From the IMG/VR virus record IMGVR_UViG_3300047481_001036: DNA of 64,000 bases; one strand, 5' to 3'. Every line of letters begins with the position of its first letter. The first letter of the stretch is position 1. A program made the position numbers and the translations under genes. This DNA is from a virus. This document shows positions 4,812 to 47,741 of this stretch, in pieces. The notes beneath the pieces were generated by a model. That model was not told the origin of the DNA and searched no databases. It saw only the letters and a program-made list of their open reading frames with translations.

Positions 4812-4869
4812 AATAATCTCCTATCTGAAGTTGCTACTACTTCTATATACACCAAAGCATATTCGATTC

Positions 4870-5006: not shown

Positions 5007-5027
5007 CACGAGACACAGGAGATAATC

Positions 5028-5732: not shown

Positions 5733-5735
5733 ACA

Positions 5736-5862
5736 TAAAGCCTTGTACCTAAAGAACTTAGGACAAGGCGAGCCGCGAGAATTTGTTCTAAGTACTTGAC
5801 GTCAAACGATTTAGATTTATTCAAGATTTTTAGTTGACAAAGCCGATAATACTCTGTAGAAT
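5736..5862 (+). promoter_or_regulatory. Paired palindromic boxes plus promoter (copy 5)
   Basis: Boxes at 5736 and 5789; TTGACA-GCCGATA-TAGAAT. Confidence 0.75.
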
Positions 5863-6052
5863 AGAAGCAATCGAAGGGAGAAAACTATGGAACTCTGGCA
5901 AATTGTCGATGATACTAAAGTGCGTCATGTATGGCGTTGTGCTGAATGTGAAGATGAAATAAATATTGTTCCGTGGTGGTATCAAGATAATGGTACTCCA
6001 GTTTGTGTAGATTGTGATGAAGATATGTTGTATCTTGGTACGGAGATGAGAA

Positions 6053-6628: not shown

Positions 6629-6866
6629 ATATTATATTAAATGTGGTACTCTAGAATTAATTTATTCTACTAATAAAAATCCTTTAGATGCTGCTATTAC
6701 AACATTAGGAGAATGTAATCAATTTGATATTCTAGATGAATATTTTTATATAGATGAAAGAGGATTTAAAGACTATGTAACAGCAGATAAAAATACTCAA
6801 GTAATTAAACTGAATAAAATATGTAGAAAAGCTGGTTGGGAAATTAATAAAGAAGACGAGTTGTAA
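6621..6866 (+). CDS. Hypothetical protein
   Basis: 81-aa ORF coupled to the upstream gene. Confidence 0.6.
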   Translation: MSKYYIKCGTLELIYSTNKNPLDAAITTLGECNQFDILDEYFYIDERGFKDYVTADKNTQVIKLNKICRKAGWEINKEDEL

Positions 6867-6989
6867 ATCTAAGGGACTACAGCACTTACGGCTGGTCCCT
6901 CCGCGTTATTCGGTTCTAAGTCTTTGTTTTTCAAGTACTTAGGAAAAACTAAAGAAACAATTGACAGATGCCGATAATTATGATATGCT
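6864..6989 (+). promoter_or_regulatory. Paired palindromic boxes plus promoter (copy 6)
   Basis: Boxes at 6864 and 6917; TTGACA-GCCGATA-TATGCT. Confidence 0.7.
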
Positions 6990-7011
6990 TGTTAGAAGAA
7001 AAGGAGAGCGG

Positions 7012-7269
7012 ATGATCCAGTGGATTGGTGTGATAATTGCATTATTGGGATTGGCCTATAATGGTGTAAAAGATTATCAGAAAGGCGATATAAAAATACC
7101 GCAACTGCCACAAAAACAAGTATTGACAAAACCGGTTTATCCTATACAATACTGTTTAATGGCTTATGATCCTAATTTAGACAAGGTTTTTTATCTTCAC
7201 GAAAACGGTCAATGGTTTGATTATGCACCACCTCAACGACGATATGCGACCCAAACGCAATCACAATAA
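7012..7269 (+). CDS. Small membrane-anchored protein
   Basis: SD GGAG; N-terminal hydrophobic helix WIGVIIALLGLAY. Confidence 0.6.
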   Translation: MIQWIGVIIALLGLAYNGVKDYQKGDIKIPQLPQKQVLTKPVYPIQYCLMAYDPNLDKVFYLHENGQWFDYAPPQRRYATQTQSQ

Positions 7270-7416
7270 AATTAAAATAAAGACTAAAAAGCCTTGGGAG
7301 TTGGCTACAGGACACAGAGAGGAACGTAATACGTTATTTGATAATCGTCCGAAACGTATGCGTACCCGTCGAGACATTGACAAAACTTGGCGAAACGAGT
7401 ATGATATGTAATATGA

Positions 7417-7492
7417 CGGGGAATAGAGAAGCCTAGCCGTTCTCGTCGGTCTCATAAGCCGAAGATCGTGGGTGCGAATCCCACTTCCCCTA
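7417..7492 (+). tRNA. trnM: tRNA-Met(CAT), initiator-like
   Basis: Unpaired C1:U72; anticodon arm TCGGT-CTCATAA-GCCGA. Confidence 0.85.
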
Positions 7493-7555
7493 CTTGTCGT
7501 GTCTACCCATGTGGATAGAGCGATCTTGACTCGTCAGAAATGGCGAGTCTTGCGG

Positions 7556-7627
7556 GCCGATGTAGCACAACGGTAGTGCAATTGATTTGTAATCAATAGG
7601 TTGAAGGTTCAAATCCTTTCGTCGGCT
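7556..7627 (+). tRNA. trnT: tRNA-Thr(TGT)
   Basis: Canonical cloverleaf; ATTGA-TTTGTAA-TCAAT. Confidence 0.92.
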
Positions 7628-7640
7628 TATTGGAAATTAT

Positions 7641-7850
7641 ATGGAAAAACCTAAAAAGTTTATTGATTCTACTGTTGGAACCCTAGATATTTTATCTAAG
7701 GGCAAGATAGAGTATGTTTTTATTCATACTGCTTCTTATTTAGCTAATAAAGAGTGCGATAAATTAGAAGCTATGGGTCATTGGTTAATACAAGCTGCAC
7801 AATATCTTAGAGAAAGCAAAAAGGAGAGCGGAAGTCATAGAGATAGATAA
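7641..7850 (+). CDS. Hypothetical protein within the tRNA cluster
   Basis: 69-aa ORF between tRNA-Thr and tRNA-Gln. Confidence 0.55.
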   Translation: MEKPKKFIDSTVGTLDILSKGKIEYVFIHTASYLANKECDKLEAMGHWLIQAAQYLRESKKESGSHRDR

Positions 7851-7853
7851 TAT

Positions 7854-7926
7854 TGCCCGATAGCTTAATTGGTAGAGCGGCTGACTTTGGATCAGCTGGT
7901 TGTAGGTTCGAGTCCTACTCGGGCAT
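7854..7926 (+). tRNA. trnQ: tRNA-Gln(TTG)
   Basis: TGCCCGA/TCGGGCA; GCTGA-CTTTGGA-TCAGC. Confidence 0.92.
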
Positions 7927-7929
7927 TTA

Positions 7930-8015
7930 GGAAACTTGGCAGAGTGGTCGAATGCGTCTGACTAGAAATCAGATGAGGCTAATAACCTCCGTGGGTTCGA
8001 ATCCTACAGTTTCCG
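7930..8015 (+). tRNA. trnS: tRNA-Ser(AGA), A34 anticodon
   Basis: Class II cloverleaf with long variable arm, G73; TCTGA-CTAGAAA-TCAGA. Confidence 0.9.
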
Positions 8016-8019
8016 TTAT

Positions 8020-8092
8020 TGCCCAGTAGCACAATGGTAGTTGCAAGCGGCTGTTAACCGCTGGGTTGTAGGTTCGAGTCCTACCTGGGCAG
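8020..8092 (+). tRNA. trnN: tRNA-Asn(GTT)
   Basis: TGCCCAG/CTGGGCA; AGCGG-CTGTTAA-CCGCT. Confidence 0.92.
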
Positions 8093-8097
8093 TTTTT

Positions 8098-8184
8098 GGA
8101 ATCTTGGCCGAGTGGTTTAAGGCAGCGGTTTACTAAACCGCCGAGGGTTAAAATCCTCCGTGGGTTCGAATCCCTCAGATTCCG
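8098..8184 (+). tRNA. trnS: tRNA-Ser(ACT), A34 anticodon
   Basis: Class II cloverleaf, G73; GCGGT-TTACTAA-ACCGC. Confidence 0.9.
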
Positions 8185-8185
8185 T

Positions 8186-8256
8186 ATTGGCGTAGTTCAA
8201 CGGTAGAATGACGGTCTCCAAAACCGTAGATGAGGGTTCGATTCCCTCCGCCTTTG
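8186..8256 (+). tRNA. trnW: tRNA-Trp(CCA) with mismatched acceptor stem
   Basis: ACGGT-CTCCAAA-ACCGT; acceptor ATTGGCG/CGCCTTT has two U:U mismatches. Confidence 0.8.
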
Positions 8257-8258
8257 CT

Positions 8259-8338
8259 GGTGAGTTTCCAGAGCGGCAAATGGGCCTGACTGTAGATCAG
8301 GTGCTTCGGCTTCGGGGGTTCGAGTCCCTCACTCACCA
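8259..8338 (+). tRNA. trnY: tRNA-Tyr(GTA)
   Basis: GGTGAGT/ACTCACC; CCTGA-CTGTAGA-TCAGG; variable arm. Confidence 0.92.
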
Positions 8339-8462
8339 TAAAATATTGATAACAAAAGACTTAGAGCAATTTGATCGGCCGAATCATACCTAAGTACTTA
8401 TTCTTCAACAACTTAGATTTTCTAAAGACTTCTCTTGACAGTAGCCGATAATAGTGTAGAAT
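8339..8462 (+). promoter_or_regulatory. Paired palindromic boxes plus promoter (copy 7)
   Basis: Boxes at 8339 and 8391 (52 bp apart); TTGACA-GCCGATA-TAGAAT. Confidence 0.7.
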
Positions 8463-8488
8463 ACGAGCAACACAAGAGGAGAAGAATC

Positions 8489-8854
8489 ATGGGTTTGGAT
8501 CAGTATGCATATTGCGTTGATAACAATGGAGAAAAGGAAGAATTGGCGTATTGGCGTAAGCATCCTAATCTCCAAGGTTTTATGGAACGTCTCTGGGAAA
8601 GCAAGGGTCGTCCCGGTGATCGTGATGAACATAATATGCTGGGAGATTTTAATTGTATCCCAGTAGAATTGACTTATGAAGATTTGGATAGTCTGGAGAA
8701 GGCGGTATCATCTAAAGGATTACCGGAAACCGGCGGATTCTTTTTTGGTAGCGATAGTGACGAATATTACAAGAATCAGGATTTGGAGTTTGTAGGCAAG
8801 GCTCGTGAAGCACTTGATGCCGGTCTGCATGTTTTTTACGATAGTTGGTGGTGA
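8489..8854 (+). CDS. Conserved phage protein (MGLDxY...YWRK family)
   Basis: SD GAGGAG; MGLDQYAY..ELAYWRKHPNLQGFME..GFFFG..YDSWW. Confidence 0.75.
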   Translation: MGLDQYAYCVDNNGEKEELAYWRKHPNLQGFMERLWESKGRPGDRDEHNMLGDFNCIPVELTYEDLDSLEKAVSSKGLPETGGFFFGSDSDEYYKNQDLEFVGKAREALDAGLHVFYDSWW

Positions 8855-8907
8855 AATCCTAAAGAACCAGTTGACAGATGCCGATATACACTGTATAATA
8901 CAAAACT

Positions 8908-8982
8908 GACCATCAAGCATAATCGTAAAGAAAAAGGGACGCTTTGCTTGCAAAGATGATCCAGCGTGGTATGATGGTGGTC
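8908..8982 (+). ncRNA. Candidate small structured RNA upstream of tRNA-Ile
   Basis: GACCATCA/TGGTGGTC and ACGCT/AGCGT stems directly after the promoter at 8871-8899. Confidence 0.35.
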
Positions 8983-8987
8983 TACTC

Positions 8988-9063
8988 GGGGCGTAAGGTA
9001 AGCCGGTTGCATCCGACACTCTTATAAGGTGTTCATAGGTACGTTCGACTCGTACACGCCCTA
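8988..9063 (+). tRNA. trnI: tRNA-Ile(TAT)
   Basis: GGGGCGT/ACGCCCT, A73; ACACT-CTTATAA-GGTGT; T arm GTACG-TTCGACT-CGTAC. Confidence 0.85.
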
Positions 9064-9096
9064 CTCGGAGGCTGACGTTTTTTTGAGTTACGAAGT

Positions 9097-9169
9097 GGCC
9101 CTATCGTCTAACGGTTCAGGACTTCGGATTTTCGTTCCGAATATCGGGGTTCGAATCCCCGTAGGGTCA
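9097..9169 (+). tRNA. trnE: tRNA-Glu(TTC)
   Basis: GGCCCTA/TAGGGTC; TCGGA-TTTTCGT-TCCGA. Confidence 0.9.
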
Positions 9170-9208
9170 TTTGACAAATAGAAAAAGTACGATATACTAT
9201 ATAAAAAT

Positions 9209-9281
9209 GGGCCTCTAGCTCAATTGGCAGAGCAAGGAGCTTTTAACTCTTAGGTTCAGGGTTCGAGTCCCTGGGGGCCCA
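9209..9281 (+). tRNA. trnK: tRNA-Lys(TTT)
   Basis: GGGCCTC/GGGGCCC; AGGAG-CTTTTAA-CTCTT. Confidence 0.92.
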
Positions 9282-9331
9282 CTTGACAAGTTTAGCCGAT
9301 TGGTGTATAATAGTTTTACTCGGGAGAGATT

Positions 9332-9532
9332 ATGATGAATGATAATGAGTATGAATACGATTATCACGATCTGGCACAAAACTCTGAAGACTTGTATGAA
9401 GACGAGTGCTACTATGACGATGGTGTAGACGAGTCTTGGATGGTTTTAGATGACGATGAAAAAGAAACCACAGATGATAATGGTTGGGATAATTACTATC
9501 ATAATCTAACAGATGAAATCATAGACGATTGA
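9332..9532 (+). CDS. Small highly acidic protein
   Basis: 66 aa, very D/E-rich with aromatic residues; own promoter at 9283. Confidence 0.65.
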   Translation: MMNDNEYEYDYHDLAQNSEDLYEDECYYDDGVDESWMVLDDDEKETTDDNGWDNYYHNLTDEIIDD

Positions 9533-9630
9533 TCTCTCCTCAACGGATGCAACTTGGTGGGACAAGTATCTATTCACTCCTTTCTTTCTTTTCTCTAAGT
9601 ACGTTCGAATCGTACCATCCGTTATTAATC

Positions 9631-10128
9631 ATGTCAGATATACTCAATAGTAATATCGAAGATTGTCGTAAAACAGACACAGGGGTTATTCAAGGAGCGT
9701 CTCATACCTGTAGAGTATTGAACCATAAGAATCGTAATAAGATTATTATTAAGGCAGTATGCGATCTAAGAAAAATATATGATGATTTTGATAGTATTGC
9801 TTGCTGCGGCGTAAGCGGTTTGATGGTAGTACCGCAGATAGCAGAAATTCTTAATAAGAACATAGTTATTATTAGAAAACAAAATGAAAAAAGATATAGC
9901 GATTTTTATATCGAAGGAGTTTCTCCTTTTAGATATGTTATTGTTGATGATCTGATTTGTTCTGGTAATACCGTTAAGTGGATACAAAATGCTATTTACG
10001 AAGATAATCCTAAAGCCAGATGTGTAGGATTGTATTGTTATTTGCCAGAAGAATGCTCTTATACTAAAGACACCGCTAAACTATTTTATCAAAGATACAA
10101 AATAAATCTCCTAAACCCTGCTCCATAA
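9631..10128 (+). CDS. Type I phosphoribosyltransferase
   Basis: PRPP-binding motif YVIVDDLICSGNT. Confidence 0.8.
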   Translation: MSDILNSNIEDCRKTDTGVIQGASHTCRVLNHKNRNKIIIKAVCDLRKIYDDFDSIACCGVSGLMVVPQIAEILNKNIVIIRKQNEKRYSDFYIEGVSPFRYVIVDDLICSGNTVKWIQNAIYEDNPKARCVGLYCYLPEECSYTKDTAKLFYQRYKINLLNPAP

Positions 10129-10248
10129 TAGACTTAGAGCATTTTGCGTGGGCCGGGCTAGCCATAAGTACTTGCCAGTAAAAGACTTGCGAACAAAAAA
10201 TTTTTCCGCAAGTTTGGCTATTGACACGCCGATAATAGATGATAGAAT
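10112..10248 (+). promoter_or_regulatory. Paired palindromic boxes plus promoter (copy 8)
   Basis: Boxes at 10112 and 10165; TTGACA-GCCGATA-TAGAAT. Confidence 0.75.
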
Positions 10249-10291
10249 CAGCGTATCGGAACGAAGAATCAGTAACACGAAAGGGTTGATT

Positions 10292-11239
10292 ATGCCTGCT
10301 ATGGTTGAAAAGATGATGTTTGTCGGTGCTACCCCGTGGCACGGTGAGGGTACGCAGTTGGAAGAGAACCCGTCTATCAGCGAGGCTATTGTTGCCGCTG
10401 GTCTGGATTGGGAAGTCGGCACTAAGCCGCTGTTTACGTCGGAAGGCGAGGAGGTCAACGCTAAGGCGACTTTCCGCAAGACCGACAACCGTGTTCTCGG
10501 AGTCGTGGGGCCACGTTATACGCCGCTCCAGAATCAGGATGCTTTCGATTGGTTCCAGCCTTTTCTTGACGCTGGCGAGTGTCAACTGCATACCGCCGGT
10601 TCGCTCAGTGAGGGCGAGAAGGTTTGGGTGCTGGCTCAACTCAACCGTGACAATTGTGAGATTGTCAAGGGTGATGAGGTGAGCAAGTTTATTCTGCTGT
10701 CTAACAGCCACGACGGTACAACGTCGATCCGCGTCGGATATACTCCGATTCGCGTGGTCTGTGTTAATACCCTCGCCGCTGCTCATACTAGCAAGGAAAG
10801 TTCTCTGATTCGGATTCGTCACACACGCTCCAGCAAGACCAATCTGGAGAACGTGCGAGATATTATGGACAATATCAACGCACAATTTGAGGCGACTGCG
10901 GAACAGTATCGGTTCCTCGCGTCTAAGGATTTCAACCAGAATGACGTTCGTAAGTACGTCAAGGTGCTGCTCGGGATCGACAAGACCCCGGACGAGGATA
11001 TTAAGACTCGTACCCGCAACATCATGGACGAGATTCTTACACTCGTCGAAGGCCCGAAGCAGAGTGCTACCGGGGTTCGTGGAACATGGTGGGCTGCCTA
11101 CAACGGTTTCAATGAATATCTTAACTACACTAAGGGTCGTTCGGTGAGCAACCGTCTCGATTCACTCTGGTTCGGCCAGAATGGAGTTGAGAACCGCAAG
11201 GCTCTCGACACGGCTATGGAGTTTGCGAACGCCGTCTAA
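10292..11239 (+). CDS. DUF932 family phage/plasmid protein
   Basis: PWHG.G, AGLDWEV, Y.PLQN.DAF, LSNSHDG, TPIRVVCVNTL, GTWWAAYN. Confidence 0.9.
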   Translation: MPAMVEKMMFVGATPWHGEGTQLEENPSISEAIVAAGLDWEVGTKPLFTSEGEEVNAKATFRKTDNRVLGVVGPRYTPLQNQDAFDWFQPFLDAGECQLHTAGSLSEGEKVWVLAQLNRDNCEIVKGDEVSKFILLSNSHDGTTSIRVGYTPIRVVCVNTLAAAHTSKESSLIRIRHTRSSKTNLENVRDIMDNINAQFEATAEQYRFLASKDFNQNDVRKYVKVLLGIDKTPDEDIKTRTRNIMDEILTLVEGPKQSATGVRGTWWAAYNGFNEYLNYTKGRSVSNRLDSLWFGQNGVENRKALDTAMEFANAV

Positions 11240-11263
11240 TCCTTTCGTGGTGCGGTTCAATGC

Positions 11264-11308
11264 GAGAGGGCCGCTGCTGGGCAACTGGCGGCGGCTCTCT
11301 CCGTTTTT
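11264..11308 (+). terminator. Intrinsic terminator after the DUF932 gene
   Basis: Long GC stem with GCAA loop followed by a T-run. Confidence 0.8.
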
Positions 11309-11329
11309 ATTTAAAAAAGCGTATCGACA

Positions 11330-11478
11330 TAAGATATTGATAAATAAGCACTTACGACGGGTCGGGCCCGCAAAATTTGTCGTAACTTTAAATACCACAA
11401 GGACTTAGGAGATTTCCTATAGACTATCTGACGAAATGACGATACAATAGATGTAAGTGTCTTAGAGACAAGGAGTTA
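11330..11478 (+). repeat. Paired palindromic boxes (copy 9) plus a third box
   Basis: Boxes at 11330, 11383 and 11454. Confidence 0.7.
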
Positions 11479-11506
11479 GGAACAATATATTGTTTAGATT
11501 TATCTT

Positions 11507-11554
11507 TGTCGTATCTAATCCTACGGAATTGCCGAATATGCCAACAGTCAGCCA
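11507..11554 (+). repeat. 48-bp motif B, copy 2
   Basis: TGTC-gtat-CTAAT-cctacg-GAATTGC-N13-AGTCAGCCA. Confidence 0.85.
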
Positions 11555-11707
11555 AAAGTATGGTAGTATTATGTTTGGTAATGATTCTAAGTATAGTAAT
11601 ACCAATCACTTGCGTAAAGTTCCAATGTGTGGTATACTGTAGGAGTAGGGGAGGTATTAGGTATACTAATAATCTCTTATATATTTGAGATTGATTATCA
11701 ATAACTC

Positions 11708-11755
11708 TGTCTCATCTAATCCTACGGATTTGGCGGTCTTAGTGATAGTCAGCGA
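11708..11755 (+). repeat. 48-bp motif B, copy 3
   Basis: TGTC-tcat-CTAAT-cctacg-GATTTGG-N13-AGTCAGCGA. Confidence 0.85.
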
Positions 11756-12589
11756 GTTTTATGGGACCTATTATGTTTAGTCCAATAGATATAACGGCTT
11801 ATCTTTCAATATTGCTAGTATCATATGATATTCATAAACCTAGTATCATTTCTTATAATTCATATACTACTACTCATATCATTACTAATTCTGATATGTA
11901 TGATGTAAATAAGATTATAGAAAAAGCATTTATGCAGGAAGAAAAATGATAAAATGTTTTAGTTTTGTTCACGGGCATAAAAATGCTCAAGAAATAGTTG
12001 TTGATCTTAATGGAATGAAAAGTATCCAGAGTGATCCGTTCTATATACAATATGATAGAAATAAGGATTATGGTAAGGATGATAGTTATTGTATTAGGGG
12101 AAATGTTACTGAAAATGATTGGGACGAATTAGATTTGTCTAGCGATTTTATGGAGATTTAATATGCAAGTATTTGTAGTATTTGATTTTCCCGGTGTTGA
12201 TCCTGACAGTGAAGAAGCAGACAATATTGTAGAATGTCTTGAAATTGATCTTGAACATTTTGCTGAAGAAACTGGACACTCTTGGTATATTGATGATGCT
12301 ATGGCCGATTAGTTAAATTGTTATAGTACGGTCATTGTGGATGTCGATATGTATGGTATACTGGCTCTATTGCAAAGGAGGTCAAGGAGTACACGAATGA
12401 AGGTTATTAATATTACTATGGAATTAGTTATTGATGACGATATTACTAATCTGGATAAGATCGCAGATTATCTGAATAATAAACTATATACTGATCCAGA
12501 ATTTTTTGGAGATTTTGGGCCTGAGAATATAGAGTCTATTGATAACGAGGACGGAACTCCTATTTATGACCAAAAATATGGGTGGGCTA

Positions 12590-12793
12590 ATGATCCAAGT
12601 GAATGATAAAAATCGTGAAGAAATTCTTGATAAATATGCTGAGAGTGTTATGGATGGTATGGACTTTCAGAGACTATGGGAATTGGCCTATAATAGTATA
12701 AGGGATAGTAAAGACCTTATGGAAAATGAGGCTTTAGAATCTGAGATTCTTGATTGTTGTCCTGAAATTTTAGAGGAGCATAGTCATGAATGA
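12590..12793 (+). CDS. Hypothetical protein, paralog of 14661 and 14909
   Basis: Shared VN..N...I...Y......MD...L..EI....P pattern. Confidence 0.65.
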   Translation: MIQVNDKNREEILDKYAESVMDGMDFQRLWELAYNSIRDSKDLMENEALESEILDCCPEILEEHSHE

Positions 12794-13018
12794 TGAACAT
12801 ATTGCTACATATCTTTATGATGTTAATCATGATGATGGTGTTTATGAGATATATGCTATATATGATAGTTGGTCTGATAGAGATAATAGGAAAGTATCTT
12901 ACTATGATGTATTTAACAAGAAAGGGATTTGCGTAAACGAAGGCGATCCATTCTATAGTCTGCCATCATGGCAGGATATATATCATAACTATTACAATAA
13001 AATACCTAATCAATCATA

Positions 13019-13411
13019 ATGCAAAAATCAGCCACGGTAGCTTTAGTATCCAATAATAAGCTTCTTCTTTTAGAGAGAGGTCATACTGCTCCATGGAATC
13101 CTAATAAATATTGTTTACCGGGCGGAAAATTAGATAACAATGAATCATTAATATCTTGTGCTATCAGAGAACTTAAAGAGGAAACAGACATTGACTTATC
13201 TTCTAATCAATTAAAACCTATAGTTATTAACTATCCTAAATATTCCAAAACCATATTTGTTTGTTGTGATAATACAAGTCATATAGTAAAACTCAACTGG
13301 GAACACTCAAAATACCTGTGGGCATCGTATGCTGATTCGCTCACAATACCCATAGTCCCCGGTCTGATGACAACTATTAAAACTCTCGTGGATCATGGCT
13401 ACATGGTTTAA
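13019..13411 (+). CDS. NUDIX hydrolase
   Basis: Nudix box PGGKLDNNESLISCAIRELKEETDI. Confidence 0.9.
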   Translation: MQKSATVALVSNNKLLLLERGHTAPWNPNKYCLPGGKLDNNESLISCAIRELKEETDIDLSSNQLKPIVINYPKYSKTIFVCCDNTSHIVKLNWEHSKYLWASYADSLTIPIVPGLMTTIKTLVDHGYMV

Positions 13412-14356
13412 ACAAAACAAAAACTGGAGCATCAGAGTCATTATATCCAAATAGATACCATTGTCAAGGAGTTATCTTATGCGAAATCCAAAGGAAATTA
13501 TAAATACTATTATTGCTGGTGATGATCTTTATTGGGATGCTTATGAAAATAAATATATTGCTCTAAGTACGGATGAAATTAATAGTATTATTAAGTCCTG
13601 TATAGACAATGATATTCATGATGAAAAGAGTATGATGAAGGTTATGAACTGGTGTACCAGTGTAAGAATAGGCTCTCTTCTTATGAAGAATTTTCTGGAA
13701 GGTAAGATAAGAATCTCTTGTGATGATAATAGTGATGAGCCTGAGTTCTCTAAGAAGTAATATATTATATCCTCACCCGCTGCATAATATATAATCTCTT
13801 TCATGTGGGTTGTCAAGCAAGAAAATTTTTATAAATCTATCATAGAACGTAAGTTGTTGATACACAAGAGGTTGCGTCAAAGAGTCGTGTGTGGTAGAAT
13901 GTACAGTGTGGTCACTTTCACCTTTTGGAGTCTTTTATGCTTGGTATGTGTTTGTGCTTCGGTATTTGTTTCGGAATGTTGAACGGATATATGCAAGTCA
14001 CTTACAACTAAGATACCAAATAATATTCATTGTTATTCATCTTCTTTTAGAAGAATAAATATTTATAAGATAATAATCAATGATCCATTTCAGTGATATC
14101 TCAGATGATATAAGTTTGATAAAATGAAAGCCGATGATTATAATACGATTGTTTACTATTATTGCTAATATTACCGATGATTCTAGTACTATAAAAAAGG
14201 AGTGTCATTGCTGCATGTAACAGAATATCTTTTGATTCTAAAGCAGCTTATGAATCATTAATCTCAATAGAACCACTAATAGTAAATAGACACATGAAAT
14301 ACGAACACATGTTCGTTAAATATATTTGCTACTCATAATAGTAAATATAACACATA

Positions 14357-14401
14357 ACCCTCTGGCGCCTCTTTATAATGCGTACTTCCAGAGGGTTTTT
14401 T
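14357..14401 (+). terminator. Terminator-like hairpin
   Basis: AACCCTCTGG...CCAGAGGGTT followed by a T-run. Confidence 0.6.
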
Positions 14402-14446
14402 ATTGATACTAAGAATAGTAGTCTAGCATTTGTATAGGCCACTTAC

Positions 14447-14494
14447 TGTCTTATCTAATGCTCCAAGATTGGTGGTAATGGTGACAGTCAGCCA
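14447..14494 (+). repeat. 48-bp motif B, copy 4
   Basis: Same spacing as the other copies. Confidence 0.85.
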
Positions 14495-14660
14495 ATAATA
14501 GGGGCCGTGGTAAAAGTTGTATTATGATATCTATTGACCCTTCATGGGTCTATTGTATAATGCAATAGTCCACGGAGCCATTGATCAGTCGTAGATAACT
14601 ATGGTGGATCATTGGAGTCATAGGCATGGTGTTTTTACAACTTGTTCTATGAGGTGATAT

Positions 14661-14912
14661 ATGATGTCTTGGAACTTAGAAGTTAATGGTAACAACAGAG
14701 ATGAGATTCAATCTAGATATGTAAATTATTTGATATCAAGAATGGATTTCATAGAAATACGTAATGTTTTAAAGGACTATATTAATACTGACAAGATCTT
14801 TTACTCTCATGATGATTTGTTAGATGAGATAAAAGCAAGAGGGCCAGAGGCTATTAGTGAAGTATTTAATCGTTCTAGTAATCTTACTGTAAATGAGGAG
14901 GTGTTACTATGA
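14661..14912 (+). CDS. Hypothetical protein (paralog family)
   Basis: SD GAGGT; similar to 12590 and 14909. Confidence 0.7.
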   Translation: MMSWNLEVNGNNRDEIQSRYVNYLISRMDFIEIRNVLKDYINTDKIFYSHDDLLDEIKARGPEAISEVFNRSSNLTVNEEVLL

Positions 14913-15157
14913 GACATTTTAAAGTTAATAGTGAGAATAAAGAATACATAGTTAAGAGATATACTGATTATCTCTTATCTCGTATGGATAATCTTGAAGT
15001 TTGGGAAGGATTCAAAGAATACTTTTATAAGGAGAAGCTATCGTATCCTAATGATACTTTGGAGCAAGAGATTAATAGATATTGTCCTTCAATTCTAGAA
15101 GACCATATTGCTGAAGAAGTAATAGGAAAGGGACACGAATATGCCAAGACTATTTAA
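14909..15157 (+). CDS. Hypothetical protein (paralog family)
   Basis: SD GAGGAGG; similar to 14661. Confidence 0.7.
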   Translation: MRHFKVNSENKEYIVKRYTDYLLSRMDNLEVWEGFKEYFYKEKLSYPNDTLEQEINRYCPSILEDHIAEEVIGKGHEYAKTI

Positions 15158-15416
15158 CAGAGTTATTAGTTTTAGAGTAGAGGGCGAAATATATGATACT
15201 GATACTACTCCGGAACAGATTATAAAAAGTTATGACTGGTCTTTTAAACATGACGGAGGCAACTCTATATTCTGCTCAGCATCATATGACGATAATCGTG
15301 GTCGTATCACAAATATGACTAGACTAAATAAAATCCAAAAATGGAGAAAGCCTGATACTGAATATTTTATTATATAAAGTAAAGAGATAAAGTTGAGTGG
15401 CATAAACGCCCCAACT

Positions 15417-15539
15417 TGTCTCATCTAATATTAACGGTTTGATTTTTTTGATAGTAGTCAGTCAAAATCTGTTATTAATAATCCGTCACATAGTCCCACC
15501 TAATGTTCTAGATTTGGTTTTAGTGGTAATAGTCAGCCA
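15417..15539 (+). repeat. 48-bp motif B, copies 5 and 6 (15417-15464, 15492-15539)
   Basis: Two tandem copies 75 bp apart. Confidence 0.85.
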
Positions 15540-15652
15540 AACTAGATGATCTGAATAAAGAATTGATTCTTGACCCTATGCTCCACAAAGTTATCATAGA
15601 CAACCTAACCGTCGCACGGATGCGACATTTTTTTCAACAGGAGAAAATTTTT

Positions 15653-15868
15653 ATGATGAAGTTTGCACTAGTAGTGGTTCTCATGGTATTCGGTTCGTCA
15701 GCATTTGCTGGTGAGTGTGTTAGTGGCAATTGTACTCTACGAAGTCGAGTTGTCAATGTTACTAGGGAAGTAATTTCTGTTCCAGTAACAGTAACCCGCC
15801 GAACGGTTGAGGCTACTCGTAATGTTGGTCGCAAGTCTGTGGCCCGCGTTCGTAGCGTTGTGCGATGA
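15653..15868 (+). CDS. Small secreted protein (signal peptide, Cys pair, R/V-rich tail)
   Basis: MKFALVVVLMVFGSSAFA-GECVSGNC; SD GGAG. Confidence 0.7.
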   Translation: MMKFALVVVLMVFGSSAFAGECVSGNCTLRSRVVNVTREVISVPVTVTRRTVEATRNVGRKSVARVRSVVR

Positions 15869-15994
15869 ACAATATTTGATAGATAATCTGAAGGGTTATA
15901 ATAACTTGTCAGACTATAGATCACTAGAAAATTCCCTCGAATAAACTCGGGGGTCTTTTCTTAAATAGACTTATTTACTTCAAGGAGGAATATT

Positions 15995-16339
15995 ATGAAA
16001 AATTTTATGATCGCATTAGCACTTATTTTTTGCATTAGTTTTACCGCAGAAGCAGCAAGACCAAACTATTATAGTCCGACCACTAATAGGGTCTATAGTT
16101 ATACTAATAGTCAAAATATAGGATCAGATCAGGATCGTTGTCAAGCAGAAGCTAATTATATGGCAGCTAATAATATTACTGGTCATGTATGGGGAACTAT
16201 AGGACGATTTGAAGGCGTGGGTTATGGGGGTAGTCCTAATTGTAATACCTGTGTTCCTAGTAGCAGAATGACTCCAACAGGAGATGCTTCGGCTCAAGGT
16301 AGGAATGGTAAATGGTATAGAGTTAGGTCGTGGAGATAA
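15995..16339 (+). CDS. Secreted protein, possibly a truncated CAP-like fold
   Basis: Signal peptide ending AEA; H..G..G.FEGVG..C..GDA.AQG.NG.WY. Confidence 0.7.
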   Translation: MKNFMIALALIFCISFTAEAARPNYYSPTTNRVYSYTNSQNIGSDQDRCQAEANYMAANNITGHVWGTIGRFEGVGYGGSPNCNTCVPSSRMTPTGDASAQGRNGKWYRVRSWR

Positions 16340-16349
16340 AAGTCTCTAA

Positions 16350-16422
16350 GCAAGAGTAGCTCAATTGGCAGAGCGTCAGGTTTCCAACCTGAATGTTGAG
16401 GGTTCGATTCCCTTCTCTTGCT
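16350..16422 (+). tRNA. trnG: tRNA-Gly(TCC)
   Basis: GCAAGAG/CTCTTGC; TCAGG-TTTCCAA-CCTGA. Confidence 0.92.
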
Positions 16423-16438
16423 TTTAATATGTTGATTT

Positions 16439-33027: not shown

Positions 33028-34392
33028 GTGATAAGTGGAAAAACATTAATTGATTTAGGATATCAACCGTCTAAATGGTTTAGTTCTGTCATAGAGTATG
33101 CTAATACTAATGATCTTAATACAGAACAATTGCATAACCATATAAGTTCAATACTTCCTAAAGTTGTTGAACCATTGTCTAATCCTATAGATTTTCACAA
33201 AAATATTCTGGCCGACAATGAGCATGAGTTGAAAAATATAAAGTCTGTTTATGAGGCTATGAACTCTTTGCTCACAATACCCACAGCAGTAGATGCTGCG
33301 GTAATGCCAGATGCTTGTCCTACAGGTAAAGATGAAATTCCTGTGGGTGGGATAATAGCAACTAAAAATGCTATTCATCCTCGTATGCACAGTGCGGATA
33401 TATGCTGTTCAGTTATGGCTACTGATTTAGGACATACCGATCCTAGAAAAGTAATGGATGTTGCTTTTGAAACTACTCATTTTGGAATAGGCGGAAGAGA
33501 TAGAAACGATCAATTAATAAGACTTCCTCTTGATCTTAAAGAGAAAATACAAAGCAACTATTATCTGAATAGTGATAAAAGTTTAAAGTATGCTCATAGT
33601 CACCTTGGTACTCAGGGTGATGGTAATCATTTTCTGTTTGTTGGAATAAGCAAGAGTAATAATCATACTTACTTAGTTACTCATCATGGTAGCAGAGGAT
33701 TCGGGGCCAATCTTTACAATGAAGGAGTATACAAAGCTGAATCTTTCCGCAAAGAAATAGCCCCCAATGTTAGTAGTAAAAATGCGTGGATTCCTTTTGA
33801 TACTAAAGAGGGTCAGGATTATTGGGAGGCTCTTCAGATAGTACGAGAATGGACAAAAGTAAATCATGAATCTTTACATGACTCTATAAGAAATAAGGTT
33901 AAGGGTTCTGTATATTCAGAAAGATTCTGGAATGAACATAATTTTGTATTTAAGAAAGATGATGTATTCTATCATGCCAAGGGGGCTACTCCTATGGATG
34001 ATAGTTTTGTTCCAGACTCATACAATGGGCTTAGACTTATTCCTTTAAACATGAGCCAACCTATACTGGTAGTAAAAGGTTTAGAAAACAATAATGGTCT
34101 TGGATTTGCTCCTCATGGTGCTGGACGCAACTTTAGTAGATCAGAACATAAAAGAAATAGATTAGTTGACAAAACATCGGAAGAATTATTCTACGAGGAA
34201 ACAACTGGTCTTGACGTTAGATTTTTTTCTGGTAAGATAGACATAAGTGAGTTGCCTAGTGCTTACAAAAATGCCGAAAAAATCAAACAACAAATTAGTC
34301 ATTTTAATCTAGGAACAGTTGTAGATGAAATAGAACCCTATGGGTGTATCATGGCGGGACATATAGAAAAGCCGTGGAGAAAAAAGAAATGA
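33028..34392 (+). CDS. rtcB: RtcB family RNA ligase (2',3'-cyclic P/3'-P to 5'-OH)
   Basis: MPDA, DICC, GTQGDGNHF, HHGSRG, HN, HAKGAT, HGAGR motifs. Confidence 0.92.
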   Translation: MISGKTLIDLGYQPSKWFSSVIEYANTNDLNTEQLHNHISSILPKVVEPLSNPIDFHKNILADNEHELKNIKSVYEAMNSLLTIPTAVDAAVMPDACPTGKDEIPVGGIIATKNAIHPRMHSADICCSVMATDLGHTDPRKVMDVAFETTHFGIGGRDRNDQLIRLPLDLKEKIQSNYYLNSDKSLKYAHSHLGTQGDGNHFLFVGISKSNNHTYLVTHHGSRGFGANLYNEGVYKAESFRKEIAPNVSSKNAWIPFDTKEGQDYWEALQIVREWTKVNHESLHDSIRNKVKGSVYSERFWNEHNFVFKKDDVFYHAKGATPMDDSFVPDSYNGLRLIPLNMSQPILVVKGLENNNGLGFAPHGAGRNFSRSEHKRNRLVDKTSEELFYEETTGLDVRFFSGKIDISELPSAYKNAEKIKQQISHFNLGTVVDEIEPYGCIMAGHIEKPWRKKK

Positions 34393-34609
34393 ATCCTTTA
34401 TTGAAAATGCTTATTAGCGGAATACTTGCAACATCGGTTTCGATTATTCTTACGCTTATCTATTATTATGCTTGTTATATTCTTGTGATGTATTTTAAAT
34501 ATAATTACGGAAACGACAACTATTGGGTATTTGGTCATTGTTTTGTTTTGCTTATTATCTCTTGGATATTTAGCTTCGGATTCTTTGCTTCAACAATAGG
34601 AGATAATTT

Positions 34610-34906
34610 GTGAAAGGTCCGTTAATTTATTACGAAATTAAAGATATGTATGGTACAGACTTGTCTAGTACGAAATTATCATCAGAATTACGCAAGAGTG
34701 TGCTAGAAGAAATTGATCTGGGTTTTAATGTTGAGATTGATTTCAAAGGAGTTAGATCTATTAGTAATGGTTGGGCTAGAAACCTAATAGGCGTTATCGT
34801 AAAAGAAAAAGGTGAAAGTTTTGTCAAAAATCATATTTTACTTAGTAATATGAACAAAGGTGTTAGACAAACAATCTTAGAAGGAACATCGGAAATACTA
34901 ACATGA
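34610..34906 (+). CDS. STAS-like (DUF4325) protein
   Basis: L.S.....LR..VEIDFKGV..IS..WA...IG. Confidence 0.7.
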   Translation: MKGPLIYYEIKDMYGTDLSSTKLSSELRKSVLEEIDLGFNVEIDFKGVRSISNGWARNLIGVIVKEKGESFVKNHILLSNMNKGVRQTILEGTSEILT

Positions 34907-35125
34907 CATTTGAAGAATTTCAAACCAAAATAGACGATACGTTTATGGCTAATCAACCACCAAAAGTTCTTGCTACTAATCGGTGGAGATATGGTCAAAC
35001 AATAATGAATGTTTTACACGATGTTTGGCATCAAAAATATCTTGAAATTAGCGATTCAGATATGGATTGTTTTTATACTAATTGTAATGTTGCTATAGTT
35101 TTGAATAAACTAGAAAAAGAGTGGC

Positions 35126-36148
35126 ATGAGAAAGTTAGCTAGTATACAAAAGATCAAATATGTTAAACCTATACCGGATGCTGATAGTATAGAAACTGTC
35201 GGAATTTTAGGTTGGGAGTGCGTTAGCAATAAAGGAGAATTTCAACCAGATGATCTTTGTGTTTATTTTGAGATAGACTCCTTACTACCAGAGATTCCAG
35301 AGTTTGAGTTTCTACGCAAAAGTTGTTGGAATGATTCTCTCAAAAAGTTTAGACTCAAAACAATAAAACTACGCAAACAACTAAGTCAGGGTTTAGCATT
35401 ACCAATAAGTGTATTTCCTAAACTAGCAGAGTTGGCCGTTGGAGATGATGTTAGTGAACTATTAGGAATAGAAAAATATGAGCCACCAATTCCGGCAGCA
35501 ATAGTTGGTGATGCAAGAAGGTTCTTGTGGCCTATTAGTAAAACTGATGAGGTTAGGGTTCAGTTAGATGATGAATATAAGTTCATTGAGACTCTCACAG
35601 GGCGACCATACTACATTAGTTTAAAACTAGATGGTACGAGCAGCACCTTTTTAATCGACCCCTCAGACGAGACTTTTCACGTTTGTGGGCGAAATTTTAG
35701 CTACCAAAACAAAAAAGAGCATAGTTTTTGGCAAATAGCTGAAAGGTACAATATTGAGCAGGGATTAAGAGACTTGTGGAATGAGGGCAGAAAAATTGCT
35801 ATACAGGGAGAGGTTGTTGCTCCCGGTGTGCAAAAAAACCCACTAGGTTTACCAATAGCAGATTTGTATGTTTTTAATGTTGTAGATATTCCTACTAATA
35901 CTAAATTGTGTTTGGATGATAGTTTGAGTATTGTTGAGCGATTAGGTTTAAAATTTGTGCCGGTACTTGAAAAAGGTGAAAGTTTCGGGTATACTGTAGA
36001 CGATCTATTGGAACTGGCACAGGGCAAATATGTTCAACACTTCTTATCTGCTAAACCCTCTCAAGAAAGAGAAGGAATAGTAATAAGGGACATTTTTGGA
36101 ACAGTTAGTTTTAAGGCTATTAATAATCAATTTCTATTGAAGGAATAA
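35126..36148 (+). CDS. ATP-dependent RNA ligase, DRB0094 family
   Basis: RKLASIQ.I...PIP.AD.IE, YFEIDS, SQGL, KLDGTS, QGE, EGIV, FKAIN. Confidence 0.9.
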   Translation: MRKLASIQKIKYVKPIPDADSIETVGILGWECVSNKGEFQPDDLCVYFEIDSLLPEIPEFEFLRKSCWNDSLKKFRLKTIKLRKQLSQGLALPISVFPKLAELAVGDDVSELLGIEKYEPPIPAAIVGDARRFLWPISKTDEVRVQLDDEYKFIETLTGRPYYISLKLDGTSSTFLIDPSDETFHVCGRNFSYQNKKEHSFWQIAERYNIEQGLRDLWNEGRKIAIQGEVVAPGVQKNPLGLPIADLYVFNVVDIPTNTKLCLDDSLSIVERLGLKFVPVLEKGESFGYTVDDLLELAQGKYVQHFLSAKPSQEREGIVIRDIFGTVSFKAINNQFLLKE

Positions 36149-37541
36149 TATGAAGCAATATAAAGCTGGCCTTGGTCTTTTCCTTACGATCTTGATAGTC
36201 GCACTAATTTTTATAGTGATCGGCCCGTTCATTCAAATCTGGGCAGTTAATACTCTATTCAAAACAACCGTAGAATACTCTTGGTTGAATTGGGCTTGTG
36301 TTATTATTCTTAATAGTAGTATTAGTGCATTTTCTTATAAGGGAAAGTAATGAACTATTTTCCTATAGAAGATAATAATAGTAATTTTGGTTTGGTAGAG
36401 ATTAAAACTACTAATAATTGTAACCCAACCCCTCATTGCAAAATACACGGGGCTATGAATTGTGTTGCTGTTCATAAGAATGGTAAGTTATGGCGATGTA
36501 TACAAAGTAATCAATTAAAAGATTGCAGAGCAGGATGTGAGGAAAAATATGAATAGTTTCCTAAAAGGATTTTTTAGTCTATTCGATTGGACTAGTCCTA
36601 AAAGTCTGGATGAAAGTATTAATGATCTTGACAATCAGATGCAAGACTTGTATGATCGAATGGGTTGGGGAGAATATAAAAAACCTTCACCTATGAGCGG
36701 CTGGAACGATGCCTGCGATTTTAATAGGGTATTAGAAACAAATCAAGATTTAGTCAATGATATTTATGGATATAATTTTAGAAAAATAGTTACCAAAGAG
36801 TTTCATAAACCTATGATAAAAGATCCAGCAAGACCCAGGGTTCATAAATACTATGATAGATAATAATAAGATCACTATAACAACTTCACAACAATTTTTA
36901 GACCAGATGATGAAATTGGTTCCATCCGGCTGTTTCCAGCCTTATGCTTATTATAATCAGGATATAGATGCTATAGAATGTTATTTTAAAGATGAAAATT
37001 GTTACACTAAAACTTTAAATGATACGATAGAATTACATTTATCATTTGACAATGAACAGGTGGTTGGGGTAAATATTCTTGGTATTAAAAAATTGATGCA
37101 AGATAAGGTGGGTTTAAATGAATAATCTTATACAAAAATGGATAATCTATCATCCTAGAACACAAAGTTTTATTACTGGTAGTCCATTTAATTATACCAA
37201 AAATCCTGAATTGGCAAGGATTTATAATAATTACTCAGACGCCATAATGGCTTGTAATAATCACTACAATAAGGAAGAAAAAGAGTTTGGAGAAGGACAT
37301 CATCCGGTAGAATTACGCTTTCATTTTAATCCTAAAACCTTGAATAAAGTAAAAGAAGATGACTAAACTAACTAATAATGAAATAGATATTTTACAGGCA
37401 CTAATTCAAAAAAGACTTAATGAAATGGGCGACTCTCCAGAAGGAGCAGAAGTTTATTTTAAACCAGAGATTTTAGCAAAGATAAGAAACAAACTAGACA
37501 AGATGCTATTTCAGTGAAAGGAGAAAATAATAAGTGATATC

Positions 37542-38115
37542 ATGATATATTTCACATCTGATACTCACTTTGGTTAGCCTTCGGGCTAACTAAGGTCATA
37601 ATAATATAATCAAGCATTGTAATCGTCCATTTGATAATGTTCATATAATGGATCAAGTTATACTCGACAGAATAAATGAAACTGTGGGGGCTGATGATAC
37701 TCTGTATATACTGGGCGATTTTTGTTTCAGAGGCAAGAAACCTATAGAATATCGTTCACGAATAGTTTGTCAGAATATTTTCCTCATAAGAGGCAACCAC
37801 GATAAACTGTCTGATTATAATGATAATCTTCAAGGTTTTATTTCGATAGAAGAAGCCAAAGAAATAATATATTGTAATCAAAGAATATATCTACTTCACT
37901 ACCCTTGTCGTTCGTGGCCCGCCTCTCATAAGGGCAGTTATCATCTGTATGCTCATTGTCATGGCAAACTAGATCATGAAGATAAAGAGTCAAAACGAAA
38001 AACTCTGGACGTTGGTGTTGACAATACTGTAAATTACAATAAGCCGTTTGGAGAGCCGTGGAGTTTCAAGGAAATACAAAAACTGTTCAATAGTAAGGAT
38101 AAAAATGAACGATAA
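37542..38115 (+). CDS. Metallophosphoesterase, split by a 22-nt gap (37575-37596); predicted 183 aa if the gap is bypassed
   Basis: MIYFTSDTHFG then, in the +1 frame, HNNIIKHCNRPF..MD..LYILGDF..GNHD..HYP..HCH. Confidence 0.88.
37572..37596 (+). other. T4 gene 60-like translational bypass signal
   Basis: GGT take-off, TAG stop, GTTAGCC-TTCG-GGCTAAC hairpin, GGT landing. Confidence 0.8.
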
Positions 38116-40362: not shown

Positions 40363-41037
40363 ATGAGATCTGATATTATCATTATTAGTGATATACATTT
40401 AGGTTCTCATATTTGCCAACACGACAAAATTCTACATTTTTTACAAAGTATTGAATTTCGTACTAATCATTTAATTATTAATGGAGATTTGTTTGATAAT
40501 TGGAATTTTACCAGACTAAGCCATAATCATTGGAAAATTTTAAAAACTATACGCAAAGCTTCTGAAAAAATACATACTACATGGATAGCAGGAAATCATG
40601 ATGGGCCAGCAGATATTATATCTCAGTTATTGAATATAGAATTTATAGAAGAATATAGATTTAATAATGGTGAAAAGGAATTTATAGTTTTACATGGAGA
40701 TATCTTTGACGAATACGTATCCAAATATCCTCGGTTGGCTAAATTAGCAGATTTCTTTTATCGGATTGTGCAAAAACTAGATCCATCCTTGTACTTAGCA
40801 AGAAAGTTAAAAAGAAGTAGCAAAACCTTTTTAAGAGCGATAGAAAAAGTAGAAAAACGAGCATTAGAATATTGTAAACATCGAAATGCTAATGTTATTT
40901 GCGTTGGTCATACTCATCATCCAACATCTGTTGATTTGGGATATATTGAATACTATAATAGTGGGTCGTGGACTGATACCGTGTGTACTTATTTAACTAT
41001 AACTAATGGAAAAGTTAATCTGGTGACATATGAATGA
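40363..41037 (+). CDS. LpxH/YbbF-like metallophosphoesterase
   Basis: SDIHLG, GDLFD.W, GNHD, HGD.FD, GHTH, NSGSW. Confidence 0.85.
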   Translation: MRSDIIIISDIHLGSHICQHDKILHFLQSIEFRTNHLIINGDLFDNWNFTRLSHNHWKILKTIRKASEKIHTTWIAGNHDGPADIISQLLNIEFIEEYRFNNGEKEFIVLHGDIFDEYVSKYPRLAKLADFFYRIVQKLDPSLYLARKLKRSSKTFLRAIEKVEKRALEYCKHRNANVICVGHTHHPTSVDLGYIEYYNSGSWTDTVCTYLTITNGKVNLVTYE

Positions 41038-47378: not shown

Positions 47379-47732
47379 GGGCGAGTAAAGGTATCGATTG
47401 GATATAGAAGATTATGTAAGCAAGTAGTGGTTAATCGACCGGCCACTTTAAAAGTCGATTAAATGCTTTAACTGGCACAACTCAGTTAGCCCTTGCTGCC
47501 TAATAAAACGGGCAGTAACAGATTGCGATTGCGAACGAGGGTAGCGATCAAAAATCTGTCGTTAAATCCCTCTGCACTTATAATATCCAACAGATTATAA
47601 GTTAAGCAAAGTTGGTAAAATGGGAAGAATCTTGTTTGTTCTAAAATCCTATTTAACTAATGAACAAAATAAACTTGTAGAAAGCATAGTTAGAAATATC
47701 GCAAGACTCGGGTTCGACTCCCGACTCGTCCA
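47379..47732 (+). ncRNA. ssrA: tmRNA; tag (A)GTTQLALAA*
   Basis: GGGCGAG/CTCGTCC-A acceptor with G3:U70, T arm TCGGG-TTCGACT-CCCGA, tag ORF 47474-47503. Confidence 0.93.
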
Positions 47733-47741
47733 CTATCATAT

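Follow-up and report, generated by a model that had tools for sequence, protein, structure and literature searches.

How a complete enzyme could be made from a gene that lies in two halves in different reading frames is the question raised by a viral metallophosphoesterase locus. The window—the whole stretch of DNA analysed, 64,000 nt in length (IMG/VR record IMGVR_UViG_3300047481_001036)—features on its + strand a short ORF1, which starts with the ATG at 37542, reads MIYFTSDTHFG (codons ATG ATA TAT TTC ACA TCT GAT ACT CAC TTT GGT TAG), and ends at the TAG at 37575–37577. After a second GGT, the frame reads HNNIIKHCNRPF... up to the stop at 38113–38115; counted from this GGT, the ORF2 frame encodes GHNNIIKHCNRPF... 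The encoded protein belongs to the calcineurin-like metallophosphoesterases (PF00149/PF12850; phrog_547), with motif I (SDTHFG) in ORF1 and motifs II–V in ORF2, and in full-length homologues of 179–193 aa motif I is contiguous with motifs II–V. ORF2 was matched to Pfam Metallophos with 22.9 bits (cutoff 21.5) and to phrog_547 'phosphoesterase' with 1.4e-37. Frame 0 is shut by the TAG at 37575–37577 and a TAA at 37587–37589, and the landing frame by a TAA at 37591–37593. When 37575–37596 are skipped, a 183-aa metallophosphoesterase results; the ORF that a gene caller can annotate comprises 155 aa, from the ATG at 37648. The sequence statements of a preliminary description of the locus, among them the matched GGT codons and both products, all hold on re-reading the window. 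The gap is not an assembly artefact, a concern raised there, because assemblies from independent studies cross it with neither a deletion nor a joint. No near-identical DNA to the window was found in the phage collection searched, and a scan across the window for further stop-plus-hairpin interruptions yielded nothing convincing.

Ribosomes most likely hop over the 22-nt gap, because the cassette is maintained, with neither half of the gene broken, in dozens of diverged relatives and in two unrelated genes. A programmed translational bypass, borne by a mobile cassette whose endonuclease is absent in the window, is regarded as the probable explanation; its features are collected in Table 1.

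Table 1. Features of the interrupted metallophosphoesterase gene in the window
Feature	Position	Strand	Basis
ORF1, 11 codons, metallophosphoesterase motif I (D7-x-H9)	37542..37574	+	sequence; dN/dS 0.117
Putative take-off codon GGT (Gly11)	37572..37574	+	GGT in 27/27 alleles
TAG stop, which would stand in the A site at take-off; opens hairpin stem	37575..37577	+	27/27 alleles
22-nt coding gap, landing codon counted in	37575..37596	+	absent from insert-free relatives
Putative landing codon GGT, +1 frame	37594..37596	+	GGT in 25/27 alleles
ORF2, 172 codons + stop, motifs II–V (GDF, GNHD, LLH, HCHG)	37597..38115	+	Pfam, phrog_547
Extended 13-bp take-off hairpin, UUCG tetraloop	37567..37596	+	comparative fold
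Predicted 5′ stem-loop around start codon, abutting take-off hairpin	37533..37569	+	folding
GGC-TAA, cognate decoy landing codon, then stop, in 3′ arm	37584..37589	+	sequence

The take-off hairpin consists of the stems ACUUUGGUUAGCC-UUCG-GGCUAACUAAGGU in the comparative fold of 37567–37596. A hairpin enclosing the TAG had been described before and is present, its strength having been understated: the minimum-free-energy fold gives it 10 bp, the comparative fold 13. In the extended hairpin, the take-off GGU and the landing GGU are located on opposite strands close to the base of the helix, and in the folds of short-gap cassettes in general the landing codon forms its 3′ base. The predicted 5′ stem-loop (AAGUGAUAUC...GAUACUCACU) adds a second element, and the two-hairpin fold reaches z = -4.9, with none of 200 shuffled sequences folding equally well. 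All the cassettes that were folded, L001, L144, L149, L151, and L181 among them, have a comparable predicted 5′ stem-loop; z ranges from -3.2 to -5.4 in those with a short gap, and covariation is sparse.

Gene 60 of T4 phage, for over 35 years the standard textbook example of efficient ribosomal bypassing, has known homologues in topoisomerase genes only. Its take-off site (NC_000866) reads GGA TAG CCT TCG GGC TAT CT and that of the window GGT TAG CCT TCG GGC TAA CT; the 14-nt core TAGCCTTCGGGCTA is identical, and the two bases that differ are partners in one pair (A-U versus U-A), so that the change is compensatory. The T4 sequence and single compensatory pair of the preliminary description were thereby confirmed. 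The core occurs once in the window versus 0.10 times expected. It is also present in more than 115 viral contigs, mostly in intergenic or terminator hairpins among the matches listed. By itself, the core is uninformative; since it is not rare, significance comes from the comparative data and not from the motif. The identity with gene 60 may be convergence, because it is largely forced by UAG together with a standard C(UUCG)G hairpin. The decoy GGC-TAA in the 3′ arm is presumably masked by the hairpin; the gap of gene 60, as described in bioRxiv 10.1101/2024.12.09.627546, contains a GGG that is not scanned.

The insert in relatives and in unrelated genes

Protein-guided retrieval yielded 19 related viral loci, and pattern scans added further alleles. 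Among the 19, four carry the insert and 15 read ...DTHFGH... unbroken; for the comparison, 14 related loci (11 distinct sequences) count as lacking it. The insert-free loci feature ...CAYTTYGGNCAY... across the site, with MIYFTSDTHFGH as the continuous reading and ...GATACTCATTTTGGACAT... as the DNA. Annotated homologues of 150–159 aa were fetched in addition (8 proteins, 11 loci), and every one of them contains the insert. In total, 27 distinct insert-bearing alleles were collected, in which the site always follows the Gly codon of D-x-H-F-G-H; the comparison of alleles with and without the insert that had been proposed for this locus thus rests on 27 alleles and 14 related loci, with the same codon throughout. 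The take-off codon is GGT and the next codon TAG in all 27 alleles. Matched take-off and landing codons, as claimed previously, are found in the 25 alleles that land on GGT; they differ in the phosphoesterases L149 (GGA) and L162 (GAC), as well as in the RNase HII case L084 (AGT).

The gap spans 22 nt in most alleles and 26 nt in L139 and L149. L139 features four extra bases and, with them, another frame offset, while GGT...GGT and the ORFs remain intact. Hence, gap length varies by non-multiples of three, and ORF2 always starts directly behind the Gly codon. Across the 27 alleles, only three of the 19 nt preceding the landing codon are variable: the loop N of UNCG (U/G) and the two pyrimidines facing the G's of the take-off codon (CU/UC/UU). 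Each variant still pairs, and the structure is preserved by all changes. The phosphoesterase of L149 and L167 is only 34% identical to that of the window and carries the hairpin at the same codon, with the 26-nt gap and the GGA landing codon. ORF1 is kept in 27 of 27 alleles, and of ORF2 (163–180 codons), all 25 copies that extend to the stop are unbroken; the sign of decay that had been looked for in ORF2 is thus not seen in any complete copy.

Two alleles deviate at the start of the gene. In L182 (minus strand, take-off at 334 of the reverse complement), ORF1 starts with ATA for ATG and is otherwise intact; a GTG in frame two codons upstream may be the start. The divergent phosphoesterase allele L162 (take-off at 1142 of the reverse complement, minus strand) combines the hairpin with the GAC landing codon; it has no ATG start (a GTG is possible), and its ORF2 is still open for 131 codons to the contig end. 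This allele is either decaying or lands without codon matching.

The module GGT-TAG-CC-UUCG-GG-CTAA also interrupts genes of RNase HII and of GT9, and the TAG after the take-off codon is found in these cassettes as well. In the RNase HII gene of L181, ...GIDEAG is followed by the hairpin, a 35-nt gap, GGT, and then AGA GGT CCT...; a hop from GGT to GGT restores the canonical DEAG|RGPLAGP. The RNase HII gene of L084/L161 (388-kb contig) features a 36-nt in-frame gap with three stops and AGT at the landing position. Its match to Pfam RNase_HII (2.5e-26) begins at profile position 8, so the first motif lies in ORF1. The gaps of the RNase HII genes (35–36 nt) contain AGGA or GAGAG and then an AU-rich run. 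In the GT9 heptosyltransferase-like gene of L151, MDAQRILIFRSGAFG is separated from GGC and DNIILTP... by a gap of 21 nt that keeps the frame and contains TAG and TAA; a hop from GGT to GGC restores SGAFG|DNIIL, corresponding to MKILIFRSGAFGDNIILTP, also shown as ...FRSGAFGDNIILTP, in uninterrupted GT9 homologues. A search of the GT9 ORF2 (L151) against PDB sequences gave no match. All cassette sites are located 11–25 codons from the gene start, inside catalytic motifs, and the ORF2s of the GT9 and RNase HII cases have no start at the junction.

The site in GT9 is interrupted in another way in L218 (970–1210) and the identical L219, where the SGAY|GD codon is cut by 4 nt (TAT TGA C GGC) and an HNH_3 endonuclease gene lies directly upstream on the opposite strand; this gap is of another, smaller type than the L151 cassette at the identical site. 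A third loop variant of the module, GGT-TAG-CC-UCCG-GG-CTAA, occurs in L172 and L192 (take-off at ~4057 and 1279, respectively) between a 13-codon ORF (MKLPMTIMTLMTG) and a 168-codon open frame of no assigned family, and may mark a further host gene. Other candidates were discarded. The matches in L168, L171, L174, L175, L188, L195, L197, and L205 are not gene interruptions and apparently represent a structured RNA: in these rumen-type contigs, the same hairpin (18 nt) lies in a conserved GC-rich context (gggagcctGGTTAGCC...tacgatgactccctg). L207–L216 from the genome collection and L147/L148, L158, L160, L164, L170, and others from metagenomes are apparently chance or terminator hairpins, and the short GT9 gene call L220 turned out to be uninterrupted.

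In some relatives, the gap is accompanied by an additional ORF. L153 and L155 feature the old gene start (MIYF[TI]SDTHFGH and a stop), an ORF of 283–284 aa, and then the new start with the gap; the stop of this ORF falls within the conserved AAGTGATAT, just 5′ of the new ATG. A homologous 293-aa ORF occupies the same position in L149/L167 (L153 versus L149: 43% identity, E = 1e-78). The L149 ORF carries NUMOD3 (4.8e-8) and a zinc ribbon, and D196-H197, N219, and N228 are invariant in the family. An AlphaFold model of the cassette ORF (pLDDT 83.7) has as its best structural match the Gme HNH nickase, which is weak (Z 3.8, rmsd 3.5 over 71 residues); Foldseek and VIA gave weak HNH matches only, with E > 0.1 and Z ≤ 3.8. 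Taken together, the assignment of this family as a nuclease is suggestive. The RNase HII cassette of L084 abuts a different ORF, DUF7487, with matches (7e-10) to PHROG families that bear the annotation homing endonuclease. The earlier guess of a portable cassette is thus borne out in that RNase HII and GT9 genes contain the same take-off module and endonuclease-like ORFs accompany it. The layout appears to be the mobA/gene 60 architecture in new genes and with other endonuclease families. In the window itself, neither an endonuclease ORF nor a second gene start is found 5′ of the gap. The upstream ORF (37359–37517) has no family match, and the window is therefore taken to hold an endonuclease-less allele—either the ORF was lost or the gap came by co-conversion.

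Proposed bypass and competing explanations

Anatomy, conservation, coding constraint on either side, occurrence in several genes, and linkage to endonuclease-like ORFs in relatives are observed, whereas the hop and how efficient it is, what the two stem-loops do, and an immunity function are inferred. The following course is proposed. The 11 codons of ORF1 would be translated until peptidyl-tRNA-Gly occupies the GGU at 37572–37574 with UAG in the A site. The CC-UUCG-GG hairpin would form at or in the A site and hinder release factor 1; the peptidyl-tRNA would unpair, the mRNA slip by 22 nt, and the anticodon re-pair with the GGU at 37594–37596 at the 3′ base of the helix. Decoding would restart at CAU and yield the 183-aa metallophosphoesterase with D-x-H-F-G-H intact, and the junction peptide of this product would be SDTHFGHNNIIK. 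The gap would be the footprint of a mobile cassette—endonuclease-like ORF, spare gene start, and gap—that targets the conserved motif-I DNA, and would probably shield the allele from re-cutting while the gene stays usable. Take-off at GGU-UAG with landing on the next GGU appears to be the only known process fitting all the data, because it accounts for the matched Gly codons, the stop in the hairpin, three frame relations, the exact restoration of motifs, and the coding constraint.

This constraint was estimated as Nei–Gojobori dN/dS from the 13 distinct insert-bearing CDS retrieved first. The ratio is 0.117 in ORF1, 0.137 in codons 12–29, 0.136 in the remainder, and 0.132 in uninterrupted genes. 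Variation in ORF1 is mostly synonymous and includes a TCT/AGT switch of serine codons. Since dN/dS is low in both, ORF1 and the stretch from the landing codon to the first ATG (codons 12–29) are, by this measure, translated.

The age of the cassette bears on these ratios. Nucleotide diversity is 0.055 in the gap versus 0.148 at third positions of ORF1, compared with pS = 0.635 in ORF2, and identity is highest at the gap and falls off on both sides. Insert-bearing genes are not monophyletic on ORF2 (AU p = 0.001); for instance, L018 with the insert groups with the insert-free L016 at a support of 100/99 in the ORF2 tree. From the identity peak, the uniformity, and the polyphyly, the cassette therefore moved between alleles and, hence, much of the ORF2 divergence is older than its arrival. 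The cassette may be this uniform because it spread recently; whole-gene dN/dS would then mostly record evolution before the insertion, and by itself it is weaker evidence than it appears. The closest insert-bearing pairs have dS ≥ 0.64 in ORF2, and no sister pair with dS between about 0 and 0.64 was found for an estimate of dN/dS after the insertion.

The most serious rival builds on this: a recently spread homing cassette would have left an inactivating scar in a gene that is dead or dispensable and too young to have decayed. It would fit the contrast between the diversity of the cassette and the ORF2 dS of even the closest pairs, the decay of identity from the gap in the manner of a co-conversion tract, the polyphyly of the insert, and the non-Gly landing codon of L162. 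However, no complete ORF2 is broken, and no ORF1 has been lost, although third positions of ORF1 have already diverged by 0.148. In the 516-nt ORF, 4.7% of substitutions create stops, with indels coming in addition; at the divergence of the cassette, a neutral ORF of this length should often be broken and none is, which counts against neutral decay. In addition, all changes in the gap preserve structure, and two further genes have their catalytic motifs restored in this way. An inactivating scar is thus unlikely, and translational bypass remains the preferred reading.

Slightly less likely still is separate expression, by which an 11-aa peptide and an ORF2 product without motif I would be made, the latter from the ATG at 37648 or from a non-AUG codon after the SD-like UAAGG. 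AUA and AUC codons do come after an SD-like AAGG that overlaps the landing codon, and gene callers report products of 150–159 aa. Yet codons 12–29 are under purifying selection, His12 is invariant, and ORF1 stays coding; uninterrupted genes conserve the Met at 37648 to the same degree, and the ORF2s in GT9 and RNase HII lack a junction start altogether. Moreover, motif I (D-x-H) is required for metal binding in the metallophosphoesterase superfamily.

Excision of the 22 nt from the mRNA and re-ligation, e.g., by the phage RtcB or Rnl ligases, is very unlikely, even though RtcB (33028–34392) and an Rnl-type RNA ligase (35126–36148) are encoded 1.4–4.5 kb upstream and a 26-nt intron is removed from eukaryotic XBP1 in an RtcB-dependent manner. 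No endonuclease or bulge-helix-bulge-like motif is evident at the gap, and the cut sites needed would be asymmetric in the helix. Gaps of 21, 22, 26, 35, and 36 nt have only the 5′ hairpin in common, their 3′ boundary being set only by the Gly codon, and some cassette contigs have no RtcB seen nearby. Least likely of all is that ribosomal frameshifting, by a single +1 or by two shifts, joins the frames: the landing-frame TAA, held in the preliminary description to bar a simple +1 shift, does so in the window but not universally, as the +1 frame is open from TTG GTT across the gap in the TCAA variants (L155, L163, L182, and L185) and the -1 frame in L149; still, all routes are blocked in the window and most alleles, gaps of 22 and 26 nt would require different shifts, 7–8 residues would be added into the invariant DTHFGH, and there is no slippery site.

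The preferred bypass would not be a plain copy of gene 60. The nascent chain at take-off comprises 11 residues in the window and 14–25 in the other cassettes. With 11 residues, a nascent-peptide signal of the gene 60 type is impossible, as had been suspected from the short ORF1. The unspaced SD-like element, the decoy GGC-TAA, and the mismatched landing codons point the same way. Short peptidyl-tRNAs are prone to drop-off, and the efficiency of the hop may be low. Whether the GGU-UAG-CC-UNCG-GG hairpin is a self-sufficient portable bypass module, with which at least two unrelated homing-endonuclease families invade the catalytic-motif DNA of diverse phage genes without killing them and with chains of 11–25 residues, is considered an evenly balanced question.

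Known bypassing systems and genomic context

T4 gene 60 is translated with a 50-nt bypass and has homologues in topoisomerase genes of myoviruses, associated with the MobA cassette (bioRxiv 10.1101/2022.08.31.505936, Manning & Atkins). The cassettes described here share with it a Gly take-off codon followed by UAG inside a CC-UUCG-GG hairpin with the identical 14-nt core, a matched landing codon, and a predicted 5′ stem-loop. As in the mobA/gene 60 system, relatives carry an endonuclease-like ORF and a spare gene start 5′ of the gap, and the end of this ORF overlaps or abuts the new start; alleles without a homing endonuclease ('hit and run') and a polyphyletic insertion are further features in common with the gene 60 family. 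In contrast to the topoisomerase host of gene 60, the hosts here are metallophosphoesterase, RNase HII, and GT9 genes, and the linked ORFs are of the NUMOD3/zinc-ribbon or DUF7487 type and not MobA. The gap spans 21–36 nt and, as stated at the outset for the window, is much shorter than that of gene 60 (22 versus 50 nt); in the short forms, the hairpin makes up the whole gap with the landing codon at its base. Take-off occurs at codons 11–25, which leaves no room for a nascent-peptide signal like that of gene 60, where signal residues ~14–30 of gp60 are in the exit tunnel. Gene 60 also features an SD-like element 5–7 nt 5′ of the landing codon and an AU-rich 3′ gap, whereas the AAGG of the window overlaps the landing codon with no spacer.

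The terminase gene of Streptomyces phage Hau3 carries 10-nt inserts, the bypass of which is backed by a junction peptide in E. coli (PMC10732093). As in the present cassettes, a short insert with a stop or slow codon interrupts a phage enzyme gene, and the landing codon is brought near by a predicted structure. However, the trigger in Hau3 is a rare UUA codon tied to the bldA tRNA of the host, with a proposed regulatory role, and Hau3 has neither a UNCG take-off hairpin nor an endonuclease cassette, unlike the relatives found here. Low-level spontaneous hopping over stops occurs in E. coli (Weiss et al. 1987; Gallant & Lindsley, cited in PMC10732093); in the account given there, a peptidyl-tRNA likewise re-pairs nearby at a stop or hungry codon without a nascent-peptide signal. 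That hopping is adventitious and inefficient, whereas a conserved hairpin cassette and genes under selection are seen here. The byp elements of Magnusiomyces capitatus mitochondria, reportedly described by Lang et al. in 2014, have to our knowledge no link to homing endonucleases. As cited in PMC10732093, these 'byp' elements resemble the cassettes: they are numerous short mobile inserts that stay untranslated, lie in several genes, and have take-off and landing codons that match. They differ in being mitochondrial, 27–55 nt in length, and part of a different genetic system. A full-text search of the literature for bypass cassettes returned topoisomerase genes, the Hau3 terminase, and Magnusiomyces mitochondria only.

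The cassettes form a natural series in three unrelated enzymes, the nascent peptide being very short throughout: the gap measures 21, 22, 26, 35, or 36 nt, the loop occurs in two variants, and the landing codon is GGT, GGC, GGA, or AGT. This series makes testable which of the gene 60 signals are essential, whether a hairpin suffices for take-off, and how the landing site is chosen. Were the module indeed portable and self-sufficient, efficient bypass would not require a nascent-peptide signal, and hopping would be widespread in phages and overlooked, with gene callers misreading it as truncated genes. The finding would explain why one class of phage genes, represented here by the 150–159-aa phosphoesterases, looks truncated, and it suggests that homing endonucleases routinely pay for the invasion of essential motifs with a translational patch.

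The window derives from a large freshwater phage. It features 13 tRNA genes (4282–16423), among them a tRNA-Gly(UCC) at 16349–16423, which could matter for re-pairing at GGN codons, e.g., at the GGA landing codon of L149. A tmRNA (47379–47733) encodes the tag GTTQLALAA. Just upstream of the interrupted gene lies an RNA-repair-like cluster (33028–36148), in which RtcB was matched with 5.6e-37 and the Rnl-type RNA ligase has a PHA02142 OB domain. A second, uninterrupted metallophosphoesterase is encoded 2.2 kb downstream (40363–41037), and the window also encodes ThyX, UvdE, and DNA ligase. In addition, a perfect 17-bp GC-rich hairpin with a GCAA loop (11264–11301) directly follows a DUF932 gene (10148–11239) and is probably a terminator.
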